A stretch of 64,000 nt of DNA from assembly GCA_963746995.1 (NCBI GenBank), contig CAVVDF010000006.1, positions 15,403-79,402 of the forward strand, in the 5' to 3' direction. The notes beneath the pieces were generated by a model that saw nothing but the letters and a program-made list of their open reading frames with translations, had not been told where the DNA came from and made no database searches. The position numbers and the translations under genes were made by a program. Shown here one piece after another: positions 11,632-64,000 of this stretch (the stretch's first letter is position 1; each line of letters opens with the position of its first letter). The DNA is from an uncultured Actinomycetes bacterium (GTDB lineage: Bacteria; Actinomycetota; UBA4738; HRBIN12).

Positions 11632-13717
11632 ATGGACCAACGTGAGCAGGTGGCGCGCCCGTCGGCCGATGCGGCTGCGGCCACGCACAGGCGTCGTCGG
11701 CCCACGGGCGCACCCCCGCCGCTGCCCAAGCACGTCGGCTTCACCGGTGTGCTCTGGCTCGCCCTGCTGTTGGTGGTGGTGGTGGCCGGCTGCCTCTGGC
11801 TCCGCGCCGATCCCGCGACGCTCGACAGGTTCGACGCGAGGATCACCGACGCCGTCATCTCGATGCGCGCCGGCTGGCTCGACACGCTCGCCCGGAGCCT
11901 GCACTCCGCGGGCTCGCGGGTCGGCCTCGCCGTGTTGGGGCTCGCGCTCGTCGTCGCCGCCTGCTGGTTCCGGCGCTGGCGGCACCTCGTTGTCTGGATC
12001 ATCTGCCTCGCCCTCGCCGGGGCGGCGGTGATGGGACTGACCTTGCTCGCTGAGCGAGCGAGGCCCTTCAGCATTCAGCAACTCGGGGCGTGGGAGGGCT
12101 ACGCGACCCCTTCGATCCCGATCACCGCGATCGCGGTCTGCGCGATCGGCGCGGCGTACATGCTGGTCGTCGCCGGTCGGCCACGCTTCTGGGCGAAGGT
12201 CGCCGTCGCCATCGTCGTCGCGTTGGCGGGCACGTTGCGGATCTATCTCGGCGTCGACCACTTCACCGACGTCGTCTTCGGGGCGATCGTCGCGATCGCC
12301 ATCCCGCTCGCGGGCTTCCGCGCATTCGCTCCCAACGACCTGTACCCGATCTCCTACGGGGCGCGGGGCAAGGCTGCGCACCTGGACGTAACCGGCCGAC
12401 GCGGAGAAGCGATCCGGAACGCGATGCAGGATCAGCTGGGCTACACAGTGCACGACATCAAGCCGGTCGGACTTGGAAGGATCCGGCGGGTCGACGCCCT
12501 TGAAGATGACGGTGACCGACGAGGACGGCCGCGACCGGACGGTCTTCGCCAAGCTCTACGCCAACACCCACGTCCGCGCCGACCGCTGGTACAAGCTCGG
12601 CCGATCCATGTTGTACGGGCGGCTCGAGGACGAGACGCCGTTCAAGACCGTTCGACGGTTCGTGGAGTACGAGGACTACACGCTTCGCCTGCTCGGCGAG
12701 TACGGGTTCTCGACGCCGGCGGCGCTCGGCATCGTCGAGATCACGCCCGAACGCGAGTACCTCATCGCGATGGACTTCTTCGACGACGCCGTCGAGATCG
12801 GCGACGCCGAGGTGGACGACCACGTGATCGACCAGGGCCTCACCATGATCCGGCGGATGTGGGACGTCGGGCTGTCGCATCGAGACATCAAGCCCGCGAA
12901 CCTGATGGTGCAGAATGGCGAGCTGCGGCTGATCGATGTCTTCTTCGTGCAGGTGCGGCCATCGCCGTGGCGACAGGCGGTCGACCTCGGCAACATGATG
13001 CTGGTGCTGGCGCTCCGCTCCGACGCGCACAGGGTCTACGAGGCCGCGTTGCGGTACTTCACACCCGACGAGCTGGCGGAGGCCTTCGCCGCCACGCGCG
13101 GTGTCGCCAGCCCCTCGCAGCTACGCCAACAGATGAAGCAGGACGGTCGGGATCTGCTCGCCGAGTTCCGAACGATGGCACCCGCACGCCGCCCGATCTC
13201 GGTGCAGCGTTGGAGCATCCGACGCATCGCACTGATCCTCGTCACCCTCGTGGTACTGCTACTGGCCGCGTTCACGGGCGTCGCGCTCTTCTTCCCGACC
13301 CGGGGCACCGTGAACTCGCCGACCTGCGGTACCGAGCAGACGATGCAGCTGATGGCCCAAGCGGTGCCGAGCGCGACGCAGCTGCCGTGTGTTTCGAAGC
13401 TACCGCTCGGCTGGGGTGTCGGCACCTCGGAGATCGTTCGGGGGCATGTCCTACTCGCCGTCGGTCTGAGCTCGGGCACTTCCACCGAGGTGACCGTGAC
13501 CTTGACCGAGACGTGCCCCGAGCCGGTGGACGGGACCACGCAGATCCCCTTCGAGGGCGGCTGCGTCACCTACCACTCGTCGATCGATGACGCCACGGTT
13601 CCGTCCTTCGAGCCCGGTGGGGGGCTTTCCTTCGTCCAGCGGGAGGATCTCGTTCGGACCGTGGCCGACGACGAGGAACAGATCCTCTGCGGAGCAGGAG
13701 CTCCGCCCTGCCCGTAA
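11632..13717 (+). pseudogene. PAP2-like membrane domain fused to a protein-kinase-like (Kdo/RIO/APH-like) domain, then a TM helix and a Cys-containing extracytoplasmic tail; one frame break at the junction
   Basis: The PAP2-like part is 11632 to about 12470 (RIYLGVDHFTDVVFGA). The kinase-like part is 12473-13717 (EGSGGSTPLKMTV..., HRDIKPANLMV, IDVFF). The frames join as ...GYTVHDIKPVG|LEGSGGSTPL near 12470. Alternatively these are two separate genes. Confidence 0.5.
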
Positions 13718-50487: not shown

Positions 50488-51957
50488 ATGAAGCGGGTCC
50501 TCGCGGTGTTCGCCATGCTCACGTGCGTGGCGTTCGCGCAGCCGGCCTCAGCCGCCACGCCGCGGTGGATAACGAGGATCGATCGGCTCGTCGCCGGCCA
50601 TCCGATGTCCGTGGTGGTCGGCAACGACGGCGAGTCGTGGTACCGCCATGCCGCCGCGTACCGCCGGGCGCCCGCCTCGAACGAGAAGCTGCTGTTATCG
50701 ATGGCCTTGTTCGAGCGGTTCGGCACCCATCACACGTTCCGGGTGCGCGCGATGGCCACCCGCGTCTCGCCCGCCGGCGTCGTCGACGGCGACCTCTACC
50801 TCCGTGGGGAAGGTGATCCCCGGACCGACGACCGAACCCTGCGGCGGCTCGCCGGGGCGATCGAAGCCGCCGGGGTCACAAGGATCAGCGGTCGCATCGT
50901 CGGTCAGACGGGTCCGTTCCACCGGGATTGGTTCGCCCCCGGCTGGAAGTCGTACTTCCCCGAGGACTACGTCGCGCTGCCGACCGCACTCACCTTCCAC
51001 GGCAACGCGACGGCGACCGGGGTGCACGTCACCGACCCCGAGCGACGAGCTGCCACCTTCCTGCGAACCGTCTTGCGCAACCGCGGCGTGGCGGTGCGCG
51101 GCACTGCCACCGCGGGGCCCGCGATCGCCGGGCTCCATGGGGTGACCACCGTCACATCGGCGCCGCTCGCGTCGCTCGTCCTTCGGATGAACCGCGTCTC
51201 GAACAACTTCTCGGCCGAGGTCCTCGGAAAGGCGCTCGCCTACGACCGCACCGGCGTCGGGTCGATCGCGGCTGCGGCCGCCGCGGTCTGTGGCTTCGAG
51301 GCGGCCCACGGGGTGAGCGCGACGACCTGTCACGACGCGTCGGGGCTCTCCTACGCCAACCGCCAGACGGCGCTGGGCGTCGTGCGGATGCTCTGGTTCG
51401 CCGACACACAACCGTGGGCGCCGGATCTTCGGCGGTCGCTCCCCGCAGGGAACCAGGGCACCCTCAAGGGTCGCTTGTCGAACGTCCGGCTCCGAGCGAA
51501 GACGGGCACGCTCGACAACGTCTCTGCCCTCTCGGGGTGGGTCTGGAGCGACGCGGCGAGCGACTGGATCGAGTTCTCGCTGCTGACGAGCGGCATGGAC
51601 GAGTGGAAGGCGAAGGACCTCGAGGACACGGTTGTGCGGTGCTTGCCAACCGGGCGAGCGACCCGACGCCCTAGAGGTCGATCGCGTAGCGAACCTCGGT
51701 GTACGACACGTCGATCGACGGAGTACGTCGGCACCACCGTCCGATCGCCACCCCTCCGCCTCATAGAATCGTCGCGCCCCCGCGTTCTCGAGCAAGAACC
51801 CAGAGCACCGCGCCGTCGAACCCCTGGGCCCGGAGTTCACCGGTCGCGTGTGCGAGTAGCCTTCGCCCGATCCCCGTGCGGGTCGACTCTTCAAGCAGAT
51901 AGACCGCGTAGACCTCACCGATATCGCCGAGCGGTTCCTCGTCGGCCCGTGTGCTGA
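50488..51957 (+). CDS. dacB: D-alanyl-D-alanine carboxypeptidase/endopeptidase (PBP4 / peptidase S13 family); the real 3' end is probably near 51675
   Basis: Signal peptide and active-site SxxK (ASNEKLL), then SNN-like and KTG (RAKTGTL) motifs. The last roughly 95 codons are Arg-rich and overlap the convergent GNAT gene. An alternative-frame TAG at 51672-51674 would give a normal-length protein. Confidence 0.7.
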   Translation: MKRVLAVFAMLTCVAFAQPASAATPRWITRIDRLVAGHPMSVVVGNDGESWYRHAAAYRRAPASNEKLLLSMALFERFGTHHTFRVRAMATRVSPAGVVDGDLYLRGEGDPRTDDRTLRRLAGAIEAAGVTRISGRIVGQTGPFHRDWFAPGWKSYFPEDYVALPTALTFHGNATATGVHVTDPERRAATFLRTVLRNRGVAVRGTATAGPAIAGLHGVTTVTSAPLASLVLRMNRVSNNFSAEVLGKALAYDRTGVGSIAAAAAAVCGFEAAHGVSATTCHDASGLSYANRQTALGVVRMLWFADTQPWAPDLRRSLPAGNQGTLKGRLSNVRLRAKTGTLDNVSALSGWVWSDAASDWIEFSLLTSGMDEWKAKDLEDTVVRCLPTGRATRRPRGRSRSEPRCTTRRSTEYVGTTVRSPPLRLIESSRPRVLEQEPRAPRRRTPGPGVHRSRVRVAFARSPCGSTLQADRPRRPHRYRRAVPRRPVC

Positions 51958-52150
51958 AGGCGACGAACCCGACGATCCGATCGGCGACCACCGCAACTGC
52001 AACACCGCCGCGCGGGCTCGCGTCGGCCCACATCGCCTCGCGATCCGCGACCGAGAGCTTGCAGCGTACTCGTCGGCGATCAGCCCGCGATACGCCCAGC
52101 GCCAGGCCGCGACATGGATCTGCGCGATGGTGCTGGTGTCATCGATCGTC
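51672..52150 (-). pseudogene. GNAT family N-acetyltransferase; frame broken at least twice and start unclear
   Basis: The pieces are IAQIHVAAWRWAYRGLI, GVAVAVVADRIVGFVAF...RTGIGRRLL (acetyl-CoA motif) and ENAGARRFYEAEGW. They lie in different frames, with switches near 52065-52075 and 51770-51790. Confidence 0.45.
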
Positions 52151-52178
52151 GCGGCCGGATCGACGCGGCCGCGGGAGC

Positions 52179-53774
52179 TCAGTCCTCGGCGAGCGCGCGT
52201 GGGTGCAACAGCCCGTAGGTGTATGCGTCAACGAGCGCCTCCCACGAGGCCTCGATGATGTTCTCGCTGACGCCGACGGTGGTCCACTCACGCTCGCCGT
52301 TCGACATGTCGATCAGCACACGCACGACGGCGCCCGCGCCGACGCTCCGATCGAGTACACGCACGCGGAAGTCCTCGAGTTCCATGTCGTCCAGCTGGGG
52401 GTAGTCGTTCGCAAGCGCCTTTCGCAACGCGTTGTCGAGTGCGCCGACCGGCCCTTGGCCCTCGGCGCTCTCGATGTGACGCGTGCCCTTCGTCGTCACC
52501 TTGACGGTCGCCTCAGCGAGCGGATCCTCGCCGTCGCCGACGCGCTCCTCCACGTGCACGCGGTAGCTCTCGATCCGGAAGTACTCCTGGGACCAGCCGC
52601 CCGCCCGGCGAAGCAGCAGCTCGAGCGAGGCCTCCGCCAGATCGAACGTGTAGCCCTCGGACCCACGAGCCTTGAGCTCCTCGACGGCAACCGGGATCGC
52701 CGCGTCGTCGATCGGCAGGCCGAACTCGTCGGCTTTCATCCGGATCGACGCGCCGCCGCTGTAGTCGGAGGCGACCACGCCTCGGCGGTTACCGACGGCC
52801 TCCGGGGGCACGTGCTCGTACGCGCGGGACACGCGCGCGACCCCACTCGTGTGCAGTCCGGCCTTGTGCGTGAAGGCATACCGACCGGCGTAGGGCTGCC
52901 GCGCCTCCGGCGCGAGGTTCGCGATCTCAGCGACATAGTGCGCAAGCTCGGTGAGGTGTTCGACGGCGCCGGCGGGCAATGCATCGGTCACGCCGAGCTT
53001 CAGCGCGAGGTTTGCGGCGATCGGCACGATGTCGGCGTTGCCCGTGCGCTCGCCGTAGCCGTTGACCGTTCCTTGGACCTGCAGAACCCCAGCGTCCACC
53101 GCGACGAGCGAGTTCGCCACGGCACAGCCCGCGTCGTTGTGCACATGGATCCCGAGCGGCACGCCGGTCTGTTCCTTCACGGTCTTGACGACGCGGGCGA
53201 TGTCGAACGGCAGCATGCCCCCGTTCGTGTCGCACAGCACCAGACGTTCGGCGCCCGCCTCCTCCGCGGCCGCCAGCACCGACATCGCGAACGCGGGATC
53301 GCTCGCGTACCCATCGAAGAAGTGCTCCGCGTCGAAGAACACGCGCCGGCCCTGCCCGCGCAGGAAGGTGACGGAATCTCGCACCATCGCGACACCCTCG
53401 TTAAGGTCTGTGCGCAGCGCCTCGGTGACGTGCAGATCCCAGGCCTTGCCGACCAAGCAGACGACCTCGGTGCCGGCGTCCAGCAGGTCTCGGAGCGCCT
53501 GTGCGTCCTGGGTGCGTTCGCCCGCCCGCCTGGTCATCCCGAACGCGGTCAGCTCCGCGTGCTGCAGCGTCTCCTTCGTCGCCAGCTGGAAGAACTCCGT
53601 GTCGCGGGGGTTCGCCCCCGGCCAGCCGCCTTCGATGTACGGGAAGCCGATCTGGTCGAGCTTGTGCAGGATGCGCAGGCGATCCTCGACCGTGTACGAC
53701 AGATCCGCTTGCTGGGCGCCGTCGCGCAGCGTGGTGTCGTACAGCTCGACCGAGACCGGCATGCGGTCGCTCAC
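52179..53774 (-). CDS. cimA: (R)-citramalate synthase / long-form 2-isopropylmalate-synthase homologue
   Basis: 531 aa intact with YDTTLRDGAQQ and HVHNDAGCAVANSL, plus a C-terminal LeuA-dimer regulatory domain. Confidence 0.75.
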   Translation of the reverse strand: MSDRMPVSVELYDTTLRDGAQQADLSYTVEDRLRILHKLDQIGFPYIEGGWPGANPRDTEFFQLATKETLQHAELTAFGMTRRAGERTQDAQALRDLLDAGTEVVCLVGKAWDLHVTEALRTDLNEGVAMVRDSVTFLRGQGRRVFFDAEHFFDGYASDPAFAMSVLAAAEEAGAERLVLCDTNGGMLPFDIARVVKTVKEQTGVPLGIHVHNDAGCAVANSLVAVDAGVLQVQGTVNGYGERTGNADIVPIAANLALKLGVTDALPAGAVEHLTELAHYVAEIANLAPEARQPYAGRYAFTHKAGLHTSGVARVSRAYEHVPPEAVGNRRGVVASDYSGGASIRMKADEFGLPIDDAAIPVAVEELKARGSEGYTFDLAEASLELLLRRAGGWSQEYFRIESYRVHVEERVGDGEDPLAEATVKVTTKGTRHIESAEGQGPVGALDNALRKALANDYPQLDDMELEDFRVRVLDRSVGAGAVVRVLIDMSNGEREWTTVGVSENIIEASWEALVDAYTYGLLHPRALAED

Positions 53775-54823
53775 GCCGAGCCCTCGACGACGAGATCGCC
53801 GATCTCACTTGTCGTGAAGCCCATCTCGCCGGCACGCATGCTCTTCATCTGGCTCGTCGCCGCGCGGATCCCGCGGTCGACGCGTTCGGCGGCCTGGGTT
53901 TCGCCGAGCTGGCGCAGCAGCATCTCGAGCGCACCGATGGCGGCGAGCGGATTGATCGTGCCCTTGCCGGTCTCGCTCGGCGCCGTACCTCCGATCGGCT
54001 CGAACATCGACACGCCGTCGGGATTGATATTGCCGCCCGCGGCGATGCCCATCCCGCCTTGGATCATCGCGCCGAGGTCCGTGATGATGTCGCCGAACAT
54101 GTTGTCGGTGACGATCACGTCGAACCGCGACGGCGAGTCCAGGAAGTAGATGCACGCCGCGTCGACGTGCACGTAGTCGGTCTCGACGAGCGGGAACTCG
54201 GTTGCGACGTCGTCGACGACTCGCTGGTAGAGGTCGCCGGCGAAGGTCAACACATTCGTCTTGTGCACGAGGGTGAGCTGCCTGCGTCGAGCGGGCGAGG
54301 CGGCTAACTCGAATGCGTAACGGACGATCCGCTCCACTCCGTGCCGCGTGTTGATGGACTCCTGCACGGCAACCTCATGCTGCGTGCCCTTGCGATGGAA
54401 GCCGCCCGCGCCGCTGTACAGGCCTTCGGAGTTCTCACGGACGACGACGAGGTTGACGTCGTCCTCGGCGTGGCTCGGCACGAGCGTCTGCACGCCCGGA
54501 TACCGCACGACCGGGCGGAGGTTGACCCACTGATCGAGCTGGAACCGGATCTTCAAGAGCAGCTCGCGCTCGAGGACGCCGGGCTTCACCCGCGGATCGC
54601 CAACCGCGCCGAGGAAGATCGCGTCGCAGGCCGCGAGCTGCTCGAGGTCTGCGTCTGGGAGCACCTCGCCCGTCCGGAGGTACCGATCGGCGCCGAGATC
54701 GAAGTCGACGAGCTCGACCTCGAAACCGTTGCGGACGGCGTCGAGCACCTTGAGCCCCTCGCCGACGACCTCGGGTCCGGTGCCGTCGCCCCGGATCACC
54801 CCGATCCGGTACGAACCGGTCAC
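53771..54823 (-). CDS. leuB: 3-isopropylmalate dehydrogenase
   Basis: 350 aa intact with the IDH/IMDH signature [25 protein letters not shown]. Confidence 0.9.
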
Positions 54824-56418
54824 GGGGTGACCTCGTTCGTTTGTGCCTCGTCCTTCGCTTGTACCCGCAGCGCGCGGTTCACCGCCGCGAGGTACGCGCG
54901 CGCGCTCGCCTCGACGACGTCGGTCGCGACGCCGCGGCCCGTCACGCGCCGCCCGTCGATGTCGAGCTGCACCACGACGTCGCCGAGCGCGTCGGTGCCA
55001 CCGGTCACCGCCGAGACGTGGAAGTTCACGAGCCGGGCCTCGACGCCGGCGGCGCGCGCGATCGCGCCCATCACCGCGTCGATCAATCCGTCGCCGATCG
55101 CCGACTCCTCGATCGTCTCATCGCCCTTCGTGAGGTGGACCGTGGCCCGCGGCTGCAGATGCGTGCCGCCGCCCACGACCACCGATTCGAGAAGGAAGAC
55201 GTCAGCCTCCGCCGCGCCCAGTCTCCTCGGCGACGATCGCGGCCAGATCCTGGTCGGTGAGCTGAACCTTGCGGTCGGCGAGGTCCTTGAAGCGCGTGAA
55301 CGCGCGGTTGCAACTGCGCGTCGTCGAGCGTGATGCCCAGCTTGTCCAGCGCGTCGACGAACGCGTGCCGGCCGCTGTGCTTGCCCAGCACCAGCTGGTT
55401 GCCCTCGAGCCCGATCTCGAGCGGGTCCATGATCTCGTAGGTCGCGCGGTTCGCGAGCACGCCGTGCTGGTGGATGCCGCTCTCGTGCGCGAACGCGCTC
55501 GAGCCGACCACCGCCTTGTTCGGCTGCACGCTGTACCCGGTCATCATCGACACCAGCCGCGACGTCCGGGTGATCTCCTTGATGTTGAGGCCGTGCTGCA
55601 CGCCGAGGTGCTCGCCGACGCGTGCGGACGATCATCGCGATCTCCTCGAGCGAGCAGTTGCCGGCGCGCTCGCCGATCCCGTTGACGGCGACCTCGATCT
55701 GGCGAGCGCCGTTCTCGATGCCGGCCAGCGCGTTCGCGACCGCCAGACCGAGATCGTTGTGGCAGTGCGTCGAGATGACGACCTCGTCGGGCAGCTCCTG
55801 GCGCACGATCCGGACCAGCTCGCCGAACTCCGTCGGCGTCGCGTACCCAACCGTGTCGGGCACGTTGATCGTCGTCGCGCCGTGCTCGACGGCGAGCCGG
55901 TAAGCACTCGAGCAGGAACTCCAGCTCGGTGCGCGTCGCGTCCTGCGCGGAGAACTCGACGTCGTCGGTGTAGGTCTTCGCCAGCTTGACGTTGTCCTCG
56001 ATCGCCTGCAGCACCTGCTGGTTCGACATCTTCAGCATCGCGCCCATCTGGATGTCGCTCGTCGAGATGAAGGTGTGGATGCGCCAGCGATCGGCGCCTT
56101 TGAGCGCCTCTGCGGCGCGCTCGATGTCGCCGGTGGCCGTGCGCGCGAGCGCGGCGATCACGGGGCCGTGCACCGAATCGGCGATCTCGCGCACGGCTTC
56201 GAACTCGCCCTGCCCGAGATCGGGAACCCCGCCTCGAGGATGTCGACGTTCAGCCGGGCGAGTTGTTCGGCGATCTCGACCTTCTCGGCGCGGGTCAGCG
56301 CGATGCCGGGCGCTTGTTCGCCGTCGCGCAGGGTCGTGTCGAAGATCCGTACTACGTCTGATTGGCCTACCGCTTCGCTGCTTGAGCCCTGTACGTCGGG
56401 GTCTGCATCCGTACTCAT
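54820..56418 (-). pseudogene. leuA: 2-isopropylmalate synthase, reading frame broken about five times
   Basis: All LeuA segments are present in order across ORFs 56158-57435 (C-terminal part), 55544-56194, 54820-55863 and 55083-55601. They include [28 protein letters not shown] and the [13 protein letters not shown] region. Frame switches fall near 56200, 55890, 55620, 55300 and 55210. Confidence 0.8.
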
Positions 56419-56420
56419 GG

Positions 56421-57435
56421 TCAACTCGGCACTTTCTTCTCGGACTCCAACCAGGGCATCATCTGGCGCAGCTGCCGTCCCACGTCTTCGAGCTGGGAGG
56501 TCTGCGCCTGCTTGCGAAGTCGGAGGAACTCCGGGAAACCGGCGTCCGCCTCGCCGATCCACTTCTTGGCGAACGTGCCGTCCTGGATCTCGGCGAGGAT
56601 CTGCTCCATCGCCTGCGCGGGAATGCTCGTCGACCACCCGCGGGCCGCTCTGGTAGTCGCCCCATTCGGCGGTGTCGGAAACGCTGTAGCGCATCCACGA
56701 CAGGCCGCCCTCGTAGATCAGGTCGATGATCAGCTTCAGCTCGTGCAGACACTCGAAGTAGGCGATCTCCGGCTGGTAGCCGGCGGCCACCAGCGTGTCG
56801 AAGCCCGTTCTTGACGAGGCTCGGAGACGCCACCGCACAGGACGGACTGCTCGCCGAAGAGGTCGGTCTCGGTCTCTTCCTTGAAGCGTGGTCTCGATGA
56901 TGCCGGCGCGGGCGCAGCCGATCCCGGCCCCGTAGGCGAGCGCGCGGGCTTTCGCCGCGCCCGTCGCGTCCTGCTGCACCGCCACGAGACCGGGCGTGCC
57001 GATCCCTTGCTCGTAGGTACGGCGCACAAGGTGGCCCGGGCCCTTTGGCGCGATCATCGTCACGTCCACACCCGCCGGCGGCACCACCGTGGCGAAGTGG
57101 ATCGAGAAGCCGTGGGCGAACATCAGCATGTCGCCGTCCTCCAGGTTCGGGCGCGATGTCCACGCGTAGACGGCGCCGTGCGACGTGTCGGGCAGCAGGC
57201 ACATGATCACATCGGCGTCCGCGACGGCGTCGGCGGTGTCGAGCACCTTCAGCCCGGCCTCCTCGGCCTTGACGCGACTCGACGATCCGGGGCGAAGCCC
57301 CACGCGGACGTCATGCCCGCTGTCCTGCAGGTTCTGGGCGTGTGCGTGACCCTGCGAGCCGAACCCGAGCACCGCGATCTGCTGTCCGGCGAGCGCGTTC
57401 GGCTCGGTCTCCGCCTCGTAGTAGATCGTGGCCAT
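56421..57435 (-). pseudogene. ilvC: ketol-acid reductoisomerase, reading frame broken about three times
   Basis: The N-terminus has [17 protein letters not shown] intact. The middle ([19 protein letters not shown]) and C-terminus ([14 protein letters not shown]...) are in other frames, in ORFs 56736-57029 and 56421-56609. Confidence 0.8.
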
Positions 57436-57484
57436 GGTCGGCGTCCTTCCTTCCTCGTCGGTGCGTTCGCGGCCCAGGGTCGCC

Positions 57485-58013
57485 TCAGGCGTCGTTCGCG
57501 ACCTTGAGAGACCGGTCCTTGATACCGCGGCCGCCGCGGCCGAGCGCGATCCGCCCGGTGCGCGAGAGCTCGACGACGCCGAAGTCGCGCAGCAATCCGA
57601 GCAACGCCTCGAGCTTCTCGGACTTGCCGGCGGCCTCGAGCGTGAGCGTCGTCTTGCGTCACGTCGACGACGTTCACGCGGAACACGTCGGCGATCTCCA
57701 TCACGCGGGCTCGCCCGTCGCCGTCGGCGCGCACCTTGACGAGCATCAGCTCGCGTTCGACCGCCGAGCCGGGATCGTGCTCGAGGATCTTGATCACGTT
57801 CACCAGCTTGTTCAGCTGCTTCGTGACCTGTTCGAGCGGCTTGTCCTCGACATTGATCACGATCGTCATCCGCGAGATCCCCGGTTGCTCCGTCGCGCCG
57901 ACGGCGAGCGAGTCGATGTTGAACCCGCGCGCCGCGAACAGACCCGCGATCCGGGTGAGCACGCCGGGCCGGTCCTCGACGAGCACCGAGATCGTGTGCA
58001 GGTGGCCGTTCAT
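57485..58013 (-). pseudogene. ilvN: acetolactate synthase small (regulatory) subunit; one frame break
   Basis: The ACT domain is [28 protein letters not shown]. The C-terminal part [16 protein letters not shown]...KVANDA* is in another frame, with a switch near 57645-57668. Confidence 0.75.
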
Positions 58014-59758
58014 ACGATCGGCGCCTCCCCCGGGATCTCGTGGGGCGCGAACTCGGGCCCGAGGATGATGTCGTCGTTCGATGCGCCCGCGGGCACCATC
58101 GGGAACACGCCCTCGCGCGGGTCGACCCGGAAGTCGATCACGACACTGCGATCCTCCACCGCATACGCCTTCTCGATCGCCGCGTCGACCTCCTCGGGGC
58201 TCTCCACCCGGAACCCCACCGCCCCGTACGCCTCGGCGAGCCGCACGTAGTCGGGCGACGTCCGGATTGAGGTACACGCCCGAGTAGCGCTCGTCGAAGA
58301 ACAGCTCCTGCCATTGGCGGACCATCCCGAGATAGCCGTTGTTCAGGATCGCCGTGATGAACGGGATCTGTTCGGTGTTGCTCGTCGCGAGCTCCTGCGC
58401 CGTCATCTGGAAACAGCCGTCGCCGTCGATCGCGACCACCCGTTTGTCGGGCTGGCCGGTCTTCGCGCCGAGCGCCGCGGGCACGGCGAAGCCCATCGTG
58501 CCGAGCCCGCCGGAGTTGATCCAATGCCGCGGCCGCTCGAAGCGCCAGTACTGCGCACGCGTACATCTGGTGCTGTCCCACGCCCGGCCACGAGGATCGT
58601 GTCGTCGTCGGCGAAGTGCGCGCAGCCGCTCCACGCAATACTGCGGCTTGAGCCGGTCCGATTCCTGGCCGTAGCGCAGGGGGTACTGCTGCCGCCAGTC
58701 GGCGAGCTGTCCGAGCCAGGCGGACCGGTCGGGCGCGCCGTGCTCGCCCTGCCGCTTCGCCAGCTCGACGGCGAGCTTGCCGATCACGTCCTTGCAGTCG
58801 CCGACGATCGGCACGTCGGCGACCCGGTTCTTACCGATCTCGGCCGGGTCGACGTCGACGTGCACGATCTTCGCGTCGGGGGCGAAGGCCGCGAGCTTGC
58901 CGGTGACGCGGTCGTCGAACCGCGCGCCGAGCGCGACCAACAGATCGGCGCGCTGCATCGACGTGACCGCGGTGTAGTTCCCGTGCATGCCCGGCATGCC
59001 GAGGCAGAGCTCGTGCGAATCGGGGAACGCGCCCCGCGCCATCAAGGTCGTGACGACCGGGAGGCCGGCCGATCGTGGCGAGCTCGAGCAGCTCCGGGGG
59101 CGGCGTCGGCCTTGATGACGCCGCCGCCGACGTAGAGGACCGGCCGCTCCGCCGCGAGGATCAGCTTCACGGCCTCGGATACCTGGCGGTTGTTGCCCTT
59201 CGTCGTCGGCCGGTAGCCCGGCAGGTTGATCTTCTCGGGCCAACGTACTCGACGTCGGCGTTCAGCACGTCCTTCGGCAGGTCGACCAGCACGGGGCCGG
59301 GGCGGCCGGTGCTCGCGATGTGGAACGCCTCGCGTACGGTCTCGACGATGTCCTCGGCCCGCTTCACCAGGAAGTTGTGCTTCGTCACCGGGATCGTGAT
59401 GCCGGTGATGTCGGCTTCCTGGAAGGCGTCGTTGCCCACGACCGGCGTCGGCACCTGGCCGGTGAGCGCGACGATCGGCACCGAATCCATCTTCGCGTCG
59501 GCGAGCGGCGTCACGAGGTTGCGTCGCGCCCGGTCCGCTGGTCGCCATGCACACGCCGACCTTGCCGGTCGCCCAGGCGTAGCCCTCCGCCGCGTGGCCG
59601 GCGCCTTGCTCGTGACGGCAGAGCACATGGCGGATCGGCGACCGGTCGACCAGCGGGTCGTAGATCGGCATGCTGGCGCCGCCGGGGATGCCGAAGATGA
59701 CCTCGACGCCCTCCTGCTCGAGGGCCTTGAGGACGGCGTCCGCGCCCTTGACGGTCAT
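58010..59758 (-). pseudogene. ilvB: acetolactate synthase large subunit, reading frame broken at least six times
   Basis: All TPP-enzyme segments are present across ORFs 59042-60073, 59167-59628, 57249-59243, 58138-58638 and 58010-58246. They include GIPGG, GPGATNLVT and GLGTMGFAVPAALGAKTG...AIDGDGCFQM. Confidence 0.8.
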
Positions 59759-59760
59759 CC

Positions 59761-60073
59761 GCGCGGCCACCTCGCGCTGTTCGACGGGCCCGGTCTCGAC
59801 CCGGCGGACCTGCGCCTGCAGCCGATGCGCGAGGTTGCGGCACGCACGCTCGAACTCCCAGGGTGTCCAGTCGCGCCGACGCATCTGCAACACGTCGGGA
59901 ACCTCCTCGTCGCCCATGTCGAACCCGCCGCCCAGATACACCACCTCCGAGGAGAGGTACCGGTCGACCGTCGCACGGGTGGAGTTGTCGATCGCGTCGA
60001 CCGTCACTTGGCCGGGGCCCTCCCACAGAACGCTCGCGACGACGGTGCCGTCTCGCTCGAATTCGTACCGCAT
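59761..60073 (-). CDS. hypothetical small ORF between the ilv attenuator and ilvB (reads into the ilvB start with no intervening stop)
   Basis: AGGAAGGAG RBS, then ATG 60073 ([22 protein letters not shown]...). No homology recognised. It may be a separate small gene whose stop was lost through an indel, or a spurious extension. Confidence 0.3.
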
Positions 60074-60135
60074 GGTGGGTCTCCTTCCTCATGGTCCCCG
60101 CCGAAGGGTCGGGGCCCGGTTGTCGTTGCGGGATA

Positions 60136-60202
60136 CAAAAAGCCCCCCGCTGGGCGGAGGGCATCTGGCGCGGGGGTCTTCGGGCCCGTGGGCCCCCCGC
60201 GC
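60136..60202 (-). terminator. transcription attenuator of the ilv operon: mutually exclusive antiterminator and terminator hairpins, followed by a U-run
   Basis: The minus-strand transcript has region 1 gcgcggggg (which abuts the leader stop codon), region 2 cccccgcgc, and a terminator gccctccg-cccag-cggggggc followed by uuuuugu. Region 2 can pair either with region 1 or with the terminator 3' arm. Confidence 0.6.
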
Positions 60203-60253
60203 CTAGGCGATAAGTACGAGGACGCTGTGTCCGGTCACAGCCTTGTTCGACAT
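60203..60253 (-). CDS. ilvL: ilv operon leader peptide MSNKAVTGHSVLVLIA (16 aa), rich in Val/Leu/Ile regulatory codons
   Basis: ATG 60253 to TAG 60205-60203. The five consecutive branched-chain codons VLVLI sit immediately before the stop, which abuts attenuator region 1. A TTGACA -35 element, a 17-bp spacer and a cacact -10 lie just upstream at 60263-60291. Confidence 0.55.
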   Translation of the reverse strand: MSNKAVTGHSVLVLIA

Positions 60254-60301
60254 CGTTCAGACAGTGTGCGGCCCAACCGCCGAGGTGTCAACCTCGGGGC
60301 T

Positions 60302-62381
60302 TCACTGTGTCCCGCGCGAAGACTGCGGCGTGACGAAGAAGTCCTGGTGCATGCCCATCGCGTAGTGCCCGGGGAGGTTGCACACCACGGCGTCATGCCC
60401 CGGGGCGAGATCCAGGGTCAGCATCATCACCGCACCGGGCTCCATATCGCCGGTCTCCCCGACGTTGGTGACCCCCTTGGCGTCTTCGTCGATCCGGTTG
60501 GCCTCGCCCTCGAAGCTCACGATCGGGAATGCGGCGGCCGGGGTGTCGGTGGCGAGCACCACGAACTCATGCTTCTTCGCACCGTTGTTCGTCACGAGGA
60601 ACGAGACCTTGCCCTGGGGTGCGAAGGGTTGGGACAGATCGATCGCCATGTGGGTGGCGTCGGTCTCGGACAGCCCCACCTCGACGGGGGTGGCGCCGGT
60701 GGGCGTGACGAAGAAGTCCTGGTGCATGCCCATCGCGTAGTGCCCGGGGAGGTTGCACACCACGGCGTCATGCCCCGGGGCGAGATCCAGGGTCAGCATC
60801 ATCACCGCACCGGGCTCCATATCGCCGGTCTCCCCGACGTTGGTGACCCCCTTGGCGTCTTCGTCGATCCGGTTGGCCTCGCCCTCGAAGCTCACGATCG
60901 GGAATGCGGCGGCCGGGGTGTCGGTGGCGAGCACCACGAACTCATGCTTCTTCGCACCGTTGTTCGTCACGAGGAACGAGACCTTGCCCTGGGGTGCGAA
61001 GGGTTGGGACAGATCGATCGCCATGTGGGTGGCGTCGGTCTCGGACAGCCCCACCTCGACGGGGGTGGCGCCGGTGGGGCGTGACGAAGAAGTCCTGGTG
61101 CATGCCCATCGCGTAGTGCCCGGGGAGGTTGCACACCACGGCGTCATGCCCCGGGGCGAGATCCAGGGTCAGCATCATCACCGCACCGGGCTCCATATCG
61201 CCGGTCTCCCCGACGTTGGTGACCCCTTTGGCGTCTTCGTCGATCCGGTTGGGCCTCGCCCTCGAAGCTCACGATCGGGAATGCGGCGGCCGGGGTGTCG
61301 GTGGCGAGCACCACGAACTCATGCTTCTTCGGCACCGTTGTTCGTCACGAGGAACGAGACCTTGCCCTGGGGTGCGAAGGGTTGGGACAGATCGATCGCC
61401 ATGTGGGTGGCGTCGGTCTCGGACGAGCCCCACCTCGACGGGGGTGGCGCCGGTGGGGCGTGACGAAGAAGTCCTGGTGCATGCCCATCGCGTAGTGCCC
61501 GGGGAGGTTGCACACCACGGCGTCATGCCCCGGGGCGAGATCCAGGGTCAGCATCATCACCGCACCGGGCTCCATATCGCCGGTCTCCCCGACGTTGGTG
61601 ACCCCTTTGGCGTCTTCGTCGATCCGGTTGGGCCTCGCCCTCGAAGCTCACGATCGGGAATGCGGCGGCCGGGGTGTCGGTGGCGAGCACCACGAACTCA
61701 TGCTTCTTCGCACCGTTGTTCGTCACGAGGAACGAGACCTTGCCCTGGGGTGCGAAGGGTTGGGACAGATCGATCGCCATGTGGGTGGCGTCGGTCTCGG
61801 ACGAGCCCCACCTCGACGGGGGTGGCGCCGGTGGGCGTGACGAAGAAGTCCTGGTGCATGCCCATCGCGTAGTGCCCGGGGAGGTTGCACACCACGGCGT
61901 CATGCCCCGGGGCGAGATCCAGGGTCAGCATCATCACCGCACCGGGCTCCATATCGCCGGTCTCCCCGACGTTGGTGACCCCTTTGGCGTCTTCGTCGAT
62001 CCGGTTGGCCTCGCCCTCGAAGCTCACGATCGGGAATGCGGCGGCCGGGGTGTCGGTGGCGAGCACCACGAACTCATGCTTCTTCGCACCGTTGTTCGTC
62101 ACGAGGAACGAGACCTTGCCCTGGGGTGCGAAGGGTTGGGACAGATCGATCGCCATGTGGGTGGCGTCGGTCTCGGACAGCCCCACCTCGATCACCGGGA
62201 TCGGGGCGTCGTAGCCCTGGATCGGCGGCCCGCTCTGCGCCGCACCGCCGGTGTAGCCGGGGATCATGGCAACGGTCTCGCCACCGCCCTGGGTGTTGAC
62301 GGAGCAGCTCATCAGCAAGGCCACGATCCCCAGCACCAGCCACCCACGAGCGCGGAACCCGAGCTTCCCGATGCGCGTCAT
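60302..62381 (-). CDS. lipoprotein composed of five tandem, near-identical type-1 (blue) copper cupredoxin domains; the frame is interrupted by small indels in repeat copies 3 and 4
   Basis: AGGAGA RBS, then ATG 62379-62381, then lipobox LLMSCSVN. A 125-aa unit (...HMAIDL...AKKHEFVV...CNLPGHYAMGMHQDFFVTP) is repeated five times and carries the His/Cys/His/Met ligand pattern. The gene lies 9 bp downstream of the cytochrome c gene in the same orientation. Confidence 0.7.
60330..62190. repeat. tandem repeat of 5 x about 376 bp (periods 375, 376, 379, 376), more than 98% identical
   Basis: Unit starts (gtgacgaagaagtcctggtgcatgcccatcg) are at 60330, 60705, 61081, 61460 and 61836. The copies differ only by a few single-base indels or substitutions (ggttggcc vs ggttgggcc, gacagcccc vs gacgagcccc, cccttggc vs cctttggc). 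Confidence 0.9.
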
Positions 62382-62390
62382 CTCGATCTC

Positions 62391-62849
62391 CTATCCCCCG
62401 CTGGGCGTGCGCCAGTCGGGGCGCGCCGGCGCCGTGGCTTCCCAGGAGCGCATGTACACGACCATCGCTTGGATCTGCTCCTCGGTCAGCGGGCCGCCGT
62501 AGTCGCTCAGCCACGCAGGCATCTCGGTCCCCGGGATGCCGCCGCGCATGATGTCGCGGATCTGTGCGTCGGTGACCGTCGTCAGGAACTCCTGGGAGTT
62601 CAACGCGGGCGCGCTCACCCCTTCCCCTAGCGGGCCGTGACACACCGCGCAGTTCGCCGCCCACAATTGGGTGCCGGCGGCGATCTGTGCCTGCTCCTGT
62701 TCGGCGGTGGCATCGGCGCGGCGCGTGCCTTCCGTGAGCTTGTACAGCGGAAAGGACAACACCAGGATCAGGAGCAACCAGACGCCGGCGAGCTGCCACC
62801 GGCGTGTCGATCGAACGAGGGTCGGATCGTCGAGCGGGGGCGCGCTCAT
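62391..62849 (-). CDS. monoheme c-type cytochrome (membrane-anchored, class I)
   Basis: ATG 62849 overlaps the Rieske stop. An N-terminal TM helix, then heme-binding CAVCHG and a distal Met (GTEMPAW). 152 aa. Confidence 0.8.
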
Positions 62850-63487
62850 GGCGTACCTCCCGACGGCGAGGCGTCCGGAGACGCGCTTCCCGGCGAGGGA
62901 GAGACGTCGCCGGGTGGCGCTGGCGTTGCCGCCGCCTCGCCCTCCACGGACGTGCACGACGGGCCGTTCGCCTCATTCGGGCCGGTCAGAACGCCCTTCG
63001 CGGGACCGGGAAGCACCGTGGCCGTGTCAACCAGGACGCGGCCATCCTCGCTGATCGTGATCTTGAAGCGATCCATCCCCCGTGGTGCCGGTCCTTGGAG
63101 GTACTCGCCGATCAGGTTGTAGAAGCTGCCGTGGCACGGGCACTCGAACTGACCCGAGCTGTCGCAGAAGGGCACCCGACAGCCCAGGTGCGGGCATTTC
63201 TGATACAGCGCACGAAGGCCGCCTTGGTACTGCGTGACGTAGAACCGCCCGCTCAGGAAATACTGAACGGTGCCTTCCTCCGCGTACTCGTCCACGGGAC
63301 CGGCGTCGATGACGGAGCCGGCCCCTTGGCTCGACCGAGGATTCAAGATGTCGTAGCTCGTCCAAGCCCCCTCGGCGATCAGCACGACACCGAGGGCCTT
63401 CCAGGTGGTATTCAGGAACCGTCGCCTGTCGATCTCCGGTCCGGTCTCTGTCGCCGACGGCTCGTCAACATCGTTGGGATCAGGCAT
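62846..63487 (-). CDS. qcrA: Rieske [2Fe-2S] iron-sulfur subunit of a cytochrome bc-type complex (Tat signal)
   Basis: RRRFL twin-arginine motif. The two cluster boxes are CPHLGC and CPCHGS. GGAG RBS. Confidence 0.85.
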
Positions 63488-63488
63488 C

Positions 63489-63998
63489 TCAGAACTCCGC
63501 GTACGAGTGCTGCCACGGTGGGACCCAGCTCCAGCCGGGGCCCCGGAAGAACGTGCCCACGACCGTCAGCACGAGCGCGAGCACGGCGACGATCGTGAAG
63601 ACGGTGACGACGAACGTCCGAGCGCGAACCCGGTGGTCCGTCCCTCGGTCGATGTACGGGAGCGCGAAGAGCCAGACGAGCGCTGCTCCCGGGATCAGGA
63701 TGCCCGCCACCATGGGGGCGAAGTGCGAGAGCAACTCCTGCAGCCCTGCGAAGTACCACGGGGCCTTCGCGACCTCAGGCGTTGCGTTCGGGTTGGCGAT
63801 CTCCTTCAGCGGCGCGTTAAACACGATCGCGAGGACGAACACCACAGCGATCGTCGCCGCCGCCACGACCACGTGGCGGACAAGAAGATGGGGCCACGTG
63901 AAGACCTCGTCCTGGGGCTCGAGCCGGTCCTTCTGTTCGACCTCCTTCTCGACGACACCGAGCAGTCGGTAGCGAGGCTCCTGGTCACTCGTGGGCAT
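63489..63998 (-). CDS. cytochrome b C-terminal domain protein (b6f subunit IV / PetD-like), indicating a split b6-type cytochrome b
   Basis: ATG 63998 (3 nt from the window end). [15 protein letters not shown] aligns with the PetD EPAWPNDLL region, and [13 protein letters not shown] is the PEWY-type quinol-site motif. Three TM helices. The cytochrome b6 partner is presumably upstream, outside the window. Confidence 0.7.
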
Positions 63999-64000
63999 CG

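Follow-up and report, generated by a model that had tools for sequence, protein, structure and literature searches.

One-base insertions in and beside a five-domain cupredoxin gene of an uncultured actinomycete are probably consensus or assembly errors

The window, the whole stretch of 64,000 nucleotides that was analysed from a contig of an uncultured member of the Actinomycetota, closes with genes of a cytochrome b/Rieske/cytochrome c operon, all on the minus strand. These code for a cytochrome b C-terminal or PetD-like subunit (63489-63998), a Rieske protein (62846-63487) and a cytochrome c (62391-62849, or to 62957). The three are recognized by Pfam and have no private 1-bp indels, private being used here for an indel found in one assembly alone. 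The full operon, as seen in the related assemblies L008 and L009, comprises a Fer4/Pyr_redox_2 gene and those for cytochrome b, the cytochrome b C-terminal subunit, the Rieske protein and the cytochrome c. Its last gene in the window (60302..62381, minus strand; ATG at 62381, stop codon at 60302-60304) we identify as that of a five-domain cupredoxin lipoprotein from a SoxE match, intact orthologues and a fold model. About 140 nt past its stop codon, at 60142..60162 on the minus strand, a terminator-like hairpin is followed by TTTTTGTAT. Beyond this lie the branched-chain amino-acid genes ilvB, ilvN, ilvC and leuA. A conserved ORF of about 104 amino acids (59762-60073, minus strand) is always found directly upstream of ilvB (in the window, L001, L002, L005 and L006) and is retained by ilvB even where the cupredoxin operon does not adjoin it; it matches nothing in NCBIfam, and in Pfam only the ilvB part of a longer ORF is assigned to a family. 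A search of the interval from 54 to 64 kb against Rfam gave no match.

With seven extra bases removed, the cupredoxin gene gives a stop-free translation of 690 amino acids. The intact gene underneath is a 2,073-bp ORF with five near-identical type-1-copper cupredoxin domains, and the corrected protein has a signal peptide with the lipobox LLMSC, a Gly/Pro-rich linker and five domains of 125 amino acids, d1-d5. The sequence similarity of these domains to the sulfocyanin family is weak: a single domain scores 21.0 bits against Pfam SoxE (PF06525), exactly at the cut-off of 21, and 16.6 bits against the sulfocyanin equivalog of NCBIfam, TIGR03094, under its cut-off of 168.4. Hence, we refer to the protein as sulfocyanin-like and not as a sulfocyanin. 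Homologues have precomputed matches to PF06525, PF13473 and PF00127, and the name “sulfocyanin-like copper-binding protein” is given to them by several sources. A sequence search of the PDB recovered auracyanin B (E = 0.0055) in an alignment that matches the Cys-x4-His-x4-Met motif. Among 38 aligned homologues there is no variation at the residues H47, C110, H115 and M120, and the ligand set is present in all five copies. An AlphaFold2 model forms a beta-sandwich (pLDDT 92.2, pTM 0.86), for which the top Foldseek matches are auracyanins, the cupredoxin domain of EfeO, rusticyanin and azurin (E 9e-8 to 1e-5), the best PDB entries being the auracyanins 6kol, 1qhq and 2aan, the EfeO N-domain and rusticyanin. 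The modeled fold, a Greek-key beta-sandwich, together with the His/Cys/His/Met ligands identifies the domains as predicted cupredoxins of the type-1 blue copper class. Auracyanins, sulfocyanin (SoxE) and rusticyanin share with them this fold and this ligand set, as well as anchoring in the membrane and linkage of the gene to a cytochrome b/Rieske complex; however, those proteins are single domains, whereas here five lie in tandem in one lipoprotein. From fold and gene context, the most plausible role would be that of a membrane-anchored, multisite copper carrier that takes electrons from the bc-type complex.

The five domains are encoded by a single tandem array at 60327-62191, for which Tandem Repeats Finder gives a period of 375, 5.0 copies and 99% matches. 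Split on a common 27-mer anchor, the 5 x 375 bp array falls into copies that begin, in plus-strand order, at 60330, 60705, 61081, 61460 and 61837 and measure 375, 376, 379, 377 and 375 bp; copy 1 corresponds to d5 and copy 5 to d1 in gene order. The true unit is 375 bp, or 125 codons, and not the 376 bp given in an earlier, sequence-only reading of this DNA. Alignment of the copies accounts for all differences in their length by seven extra G’s on the plus strand. The first, at 61078, sits at the junction of copies 2 and 3, where GGG has become GGGG (GGTGGGCG to GGTGGGGCG), and is without a counterpart in L001, L002 and L009. Copy 3 contains three, at 61251 (GG to GGG, GGTTGG becoming GGTTGGG), at 61331 (G to GG, CTTCG becoming CTTCGG, in this copy only) and at 61425, which is outside any homopolymer (GAC|G|AGC). 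The one at 61457, at the junction of copies 3 and 4, is at the site equivalent to 61078. The remaining two are in copy 4, with 61630 at the unit position of 61251 (again GGTTGG to GGTTGGG) and 61803 at that of 61425, the context in the latter pair changing from GACAGCC to GACGAGCC. Six of these bases had been listed in the sequence-only reading, and all six are present as a G on the plus strand; that at 61457 had been overlooked. The same reading had copies 3 and 4 differing from the others solely by insertions, but one substitution also runs through the array and separates copies 1 and 2, which have C (60476 and 60851), from copies 3-5, which have T (61227, 61606 and 61983). It is synonymous (AAG/AAA, Lys). 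The array therefore holds four to seven indel events against a single substitution. Counts of 31-mers in the window, with the insertion versus without it, are 2:3 for TTCGTCGATCCGGTTGGGCCTCGCCCTCGAA and TTCGTCGATCCGGTTGGCCTCGCCCTCGAAG, 2:2 for GCGTCGGTCTCGGACGAGCCCCACCTCGACG and GCGTCGGTCTCGGACAGCCCCACCTCGACGG, 2:2 for GGGTGGCGCCGGTGGGGCGTGACGAAGAAGT and GGGTGGCGCCGGTGGGCGTGACGAAGAAGTC, and 1:4 for AACTCATGCTTCTTCGGCACCGTTGTTCGTC and AACTCATGCTTCTTCGCACCGTTGTTCGTCA.

Taken at face value, the insertions break the gene. Along the minus strand the cumulative shift climbs through +1, +2, +3, +4, +5 and +6 to a net +7: the insertions at 61803, 61630 and 61457 sum to +3, those at 61425, 61331 and 61251 to a further +3, and the seventh is that at 61078. 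Frame 0 is regained for merely 31 nt and then for 172 nt; owing to the insertion at 61078, the frame of the last two domains is not that of the start codon. Read in frame 0, the sequence that begins with the ATG at 62381 already meets a stop codon at 61698-61700, past d1 and ahead of the first restoration. What remains is a fragment of 227 amino acids (61698..62381, minus strand), with the signal peptide, the linker, d1 and some out-of-frame residues before the stop, and one of 281 amino acids (60302..61147, minus strand), which has 23 out-of-frame residues followed by d4 and d5 in the correct frame and which lacks a signal peptide. The sequence-only reading had the frame shifted and then restored, which is right to the extent that two triplets of insertions each sum to +3, but the net shift and the early stop override this; and were the insertions real, the exported protein would be without four of its five domains, rather than two of the five being inactivated.

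Such a row of shifts raises the question of regulation, be it phase variation at short G tracts or programmed ribosomal frameshifting, and four of the seven sites do extend a run of G. The runs, though, are just 2-4 bases long, two sites are outside any run, no known mechanism would read through seven shifts with a net +7 and a stop at 61698, relatives are without any such shift, and identical defects strike ilvB, ilvN, ilvC and leuA (see below). We give this explanation next to no weight and reject it on the grounds of the net shift, the early stop and the equal lesions in housekeeping genes.

Comparison with other genomes indicates how the array behaves over time. In four genomes, the DNA of its copies is 99.5-100% identical within a genome, versus 77-94% between genomes, the latter being about equal to the identity of the flanking DNA; no differences are seen among the inner copies, and the few SNPs are confined to the edge copies. 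With paralogous copies more alike than orthologous ones, the array evolves in concert. Exactly five units are found in six assemblies: the window, L001 (10199-12052), L002 (10199-12052), L003 (10085-11947), L009 (8199-10054) and L008 (5159-7016). In L008, the five domains share about 85% identity and show a mosaic of identical tracts. As this array is diverged and nevertheless has five domains, the five-domain architecture is older than the homogenization; the domains are held nearly identical by concerted evolution in most lineages. Among the called proteins of the wider cupredoxin family there are 1-4 copper sites, with many of these proteins coming from short-read assemblies, which would collapse identical repeats, or being fragments. 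Long, near-identical tandem repeats under concerted evolution are also a feature of the streptococcal alpha C/Rib surface proteins. The copies there, as here, are near-identical within a genome and diverged between genomes; here, however, the copy number is constant at five in all six assemblies, the diverged L008 included, and the unit is a whole redox domain instead of a structural spacer. In L003, an extra single-domain cupredoxin lipoprotein (LLCNLTKHFEKGM) is encoded at 12305-12835, just downstream of the five-domain gene.

The distribution of the extra bases over the copies is far from random. All three insertions of copy 4 are at positions also struck in copy 3, which has four; under independent random placement, the probability of this coincidence is about 5e-7, and the insertions of the two copies hence have a common cause. 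That cause could be biological. If the insertions were real mutations, the cupredoxin gene and the leuA/ilvCNB genes would be very young pseudogenes, with conversion or duplication having spread a frameshifted inner unit to its neighbor. The identical unit positions of three insertions in the adjacent copies 3 and 4 would follow from this, the array is homogenized in vivo in relatives, in which the inner copies are 100% identical, and half of the insertions lie outside homopolymers. Stated in terms of the array, the insertions would then represent concerted evolution caught mid-process, a frameshifted unit having been copied onto the adjacent one by the same conversion that homogenizes the domains, and the gene would be inactivated, in a lineage where the synthesis of branched-chain amino acids is being lost as well. 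Gene conversion, which is clearly at work in this array, would indeed also yield identical insertions in adjacent inner copies, and this counts against reading them as an artefact. The shared positions alone do not discriminate between artefact and gene conversion; what does discriminate is the regional context, the bias in base and strand and the unchanged dN/dS.

The defect is regional, extending over about 6.6 kb, rather than specific to the repeat. A second error patch, at 55221..59761 on the minus strand, has 18 1-bp insertions and three 1-bp deletions private to the window, which break leuA, ilvC, ilvN and ilvB, so that the interval 55221-61803 holds 25 private 1-bp insertions in total. 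We aligned the window with L001 and L002, with L001, L002, L005 and L006, and with L009, L001 and L002; L005 and L006 had been reached through ilvB homologues and L008 and L009 through cupredoxin homologues. In these three-, five- and four-way alignments, all 7 insertions of the array and the 18 others are unique to the window. Their density within the array, 3.7 per kb, is similar to the 4.0 per kb of leuA/ilvC/ilvN/ilvB. On either side, at 61804-64000 and 51800-55220, the alignment with L001 and L002 shows no private 1-bp indels in coding sequence. Similarly, a GC3 frame plot has about 30 frame switches in 54.9-62 kb, as against about 1 per kb in the remaining window, and where neighboring ORFs were sampled in other parts of the window, they proved to be distinct genes whose Pfam domains are complete. 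Poor quality throughout the window was therefore rejected, the frame plot and the Pfam check of adjacent ORFs being ordinary outside the stretch. When corrected, the products of leuA, ilvC, ilvN and ilvB are full length and 86-92% identical to those of L002. L005 and L006, the closest relatives by ilvB with 96-97% amino-acid identity, helped place the insertions in the ilv/leu genes. Upstream of ilvB, these two assemblies have an allene-oxide-cyclase-like gene and an amino-acid permease, and no bc operon or cupredoxin is found there; the junction of the respiratory operon with the ilv cluster would hence be lineage-specific. Just upstream of leuA in L002 (15960-16105) is a 39-nt tandem repeat of 3.8 copies with 96% matches, of which an extra 116 nt are missing from the window and from L001.

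The two patches are separated by a clean interval. The 1.3 kb at 59762-61077, repeat copies 1 and 2 included, has no insertion, although the regional density predicts about 5 (P = 0.005). The defect is thus patchy, and the clean copies 1 and 2 together with the sequence down to 59762 are a second point against an artefact. They also bear on a further explanation, by which the consensus is a chimera of coexisting strains or of copy-number variants of the array, an artefact, then, but one triggered by real heterogeneity of the population. Metagenome assemblies do merge close strains, one of the patches ends within the array, and the synonymous SNP divides the copies 2:3. Nevertheless, the indels come without accompanying substitution heterogeneity; moreover, five copies are seen in six of six assemblies. 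We regard a chimeric consensus as very improbable.

The spectrum of the 25 insertions is strongly skewed. Twenty of them are a G on the plus strand, where G makes up 34% of the bases (binomial p = 3e-6, or 4e-5 with shared events counted once), and they are accompanied by only three to five deletions, all of these indels being private and of 1 bp, a ratio of at least 5:1. The sequence-only reading had proposed a comparison of homopolymer contexts as a check; about half of the insertions are indeed in runs, but 12 of 25 are in runs of length 1. This led us to reject a model of homopolymer errors only, and it is a third point against an artefact, since it is unlike the textbook Nanopore error. 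Selection, on the other hand, seems to have taken no notice of the insertions. With the private insertions deleted, dN/dS relative to L002 is 0.083 for the cupredoxin gene, 0.10 for ilvB, 0.27 for ilvN, 0.24 for ilvC and 0.15 for leuA, compared with 0.08-0.25 for the undamaged flanking genes, and the corrected genes of the damaged stretch have no internal stops. The relaxed selection that is the hallmark of pseudogenes is not seen in these values (0.08-0.27, the same as in the flanks), and purifying selection has not been relaxed in the damaged stretch. If the mutations were real, some 25 +1 insertions would have had to accumulate within 6.6 kb while deletions stayed almost absent and the array took on only one substitution; the insertions would have an 80% bias to one base on one strand, dN/dS would be unchanged, and four branched-chain amino-acid genes would have been lost simultaneously. 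We therefore consider it very improbable that the insertions are genuine, and give just as small a chance to the conversion of a frameshifted unit having been caught midway.

The other assemblies point the same way. An uninterrupted ORF with exactly five domains is present in L001, L002 and L003. Insertions of the same kind are, however, found in relatives at positions other than those of the window: over about 10 kb, the private 1-bp changes of L009 number 23 insertions and 2 deletions, with 2 of the insertions inside its array; L001 has 10-11; and in L008, 2 within the array split the gene into products of 346 and 341 amino acids. No private 1-bp insertion was seen in L002 in the alignments with the window and relatives. 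That like insertions, private to each assembly, recur elsewhere in relatives points to the method and not to the lineage. L001-L003 are metagenome-assembled genomes (MAGs) of the Microflora Danica (MFD) catalogue, for which Nanopore reads were assembled with Flye (--meta --nano-hq) and the result was put through Medaka once, with no polishing by short reads (PMC12313526). The window may well derive from a similar assembly. We also looked for the strain itself in other data. Exact-protein look-ups gave no match for the 227-aa fragment, for three further ORFs of the window or for the cytochrome c of 152 amino acids, the Rieske ORF being the only one to match. The Logan contig from run ERR11523661 (L004) that it matched is 100% identical to window positions 62535-63514 over its 980 bp, which places the same strain in that run; the contig breaks off 150 bp before the cupredoxin gene. 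When the corrected protein was used to search for homologues, none exceeded 86% identity, which indicates that no independent assembly of the same-strain array is on record. A pattern that admits both forms of the 61251-type site, that with the extra G and that lacking it, had 0 matches in a scan of JGI metagenomes.

Taking these findings together, we propose, with a probability of nearly nine in ten, that the seven extra G’s of the array are consensus or assembly errors rather than mutations and that the indels are not a real feature of the gene. This judgment comes from the occurrence of the same type of insertion in the adjoining essential genes and from the intactness of the gene in related genomes. 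The preference of the sequence-only reading for consensus or assembly error over biology is thereby borne out, with strong, if indirect, backing from the insertion density in the neighboring genes, the base and strand bias, dN/dS, the intact relatives and the private insertions in other assemblies. The errors would most likely have arisen in a metagenome assembled from long reads, where the effective coverage was poor locally, and a single technical cause could account for the positions shared by copies 3 and 4. One candidate is a basecalling error specific to context and strand, which might persist in the inner copies, since unique placement there requires reads that span all 1.9 kb of the array. 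Alternatively, a repeat loop in the assembly graph may have been traversed twice, such that one draft unit was written out twice. In several respects, the errors resemble the residual indels of Nanopore MAGs assembled with Flye and Medaka, which are likewise private, 1 bp in size, gene splitting, specific to an assembly and located in regions of weak support, and which strike housekeeping genes as readily as others. They differ from these in the excess of insertions over deletions, in that half of them are outside homopolymers and in the presence of identical errors in two neighboring repeat copies.

The consequences for the biology read from this contig are considerable. An annotation at face value would list two cupredoxin fragments and broken leuA, ilvC, ilvN and ilvB genes and, if uncorrected, would falsely imply a pseudogenized electron carrier in a branched-chain amino-acid auxotroph; spotting the error-rich stretch averts this. 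What emerges in its place, a five-domain type-1-copper lipoprotein encoded on a cytochrome b/Rieske/cytochrome c operon of an uncultured member of the Actinomycetota, is noteworthy in itself.
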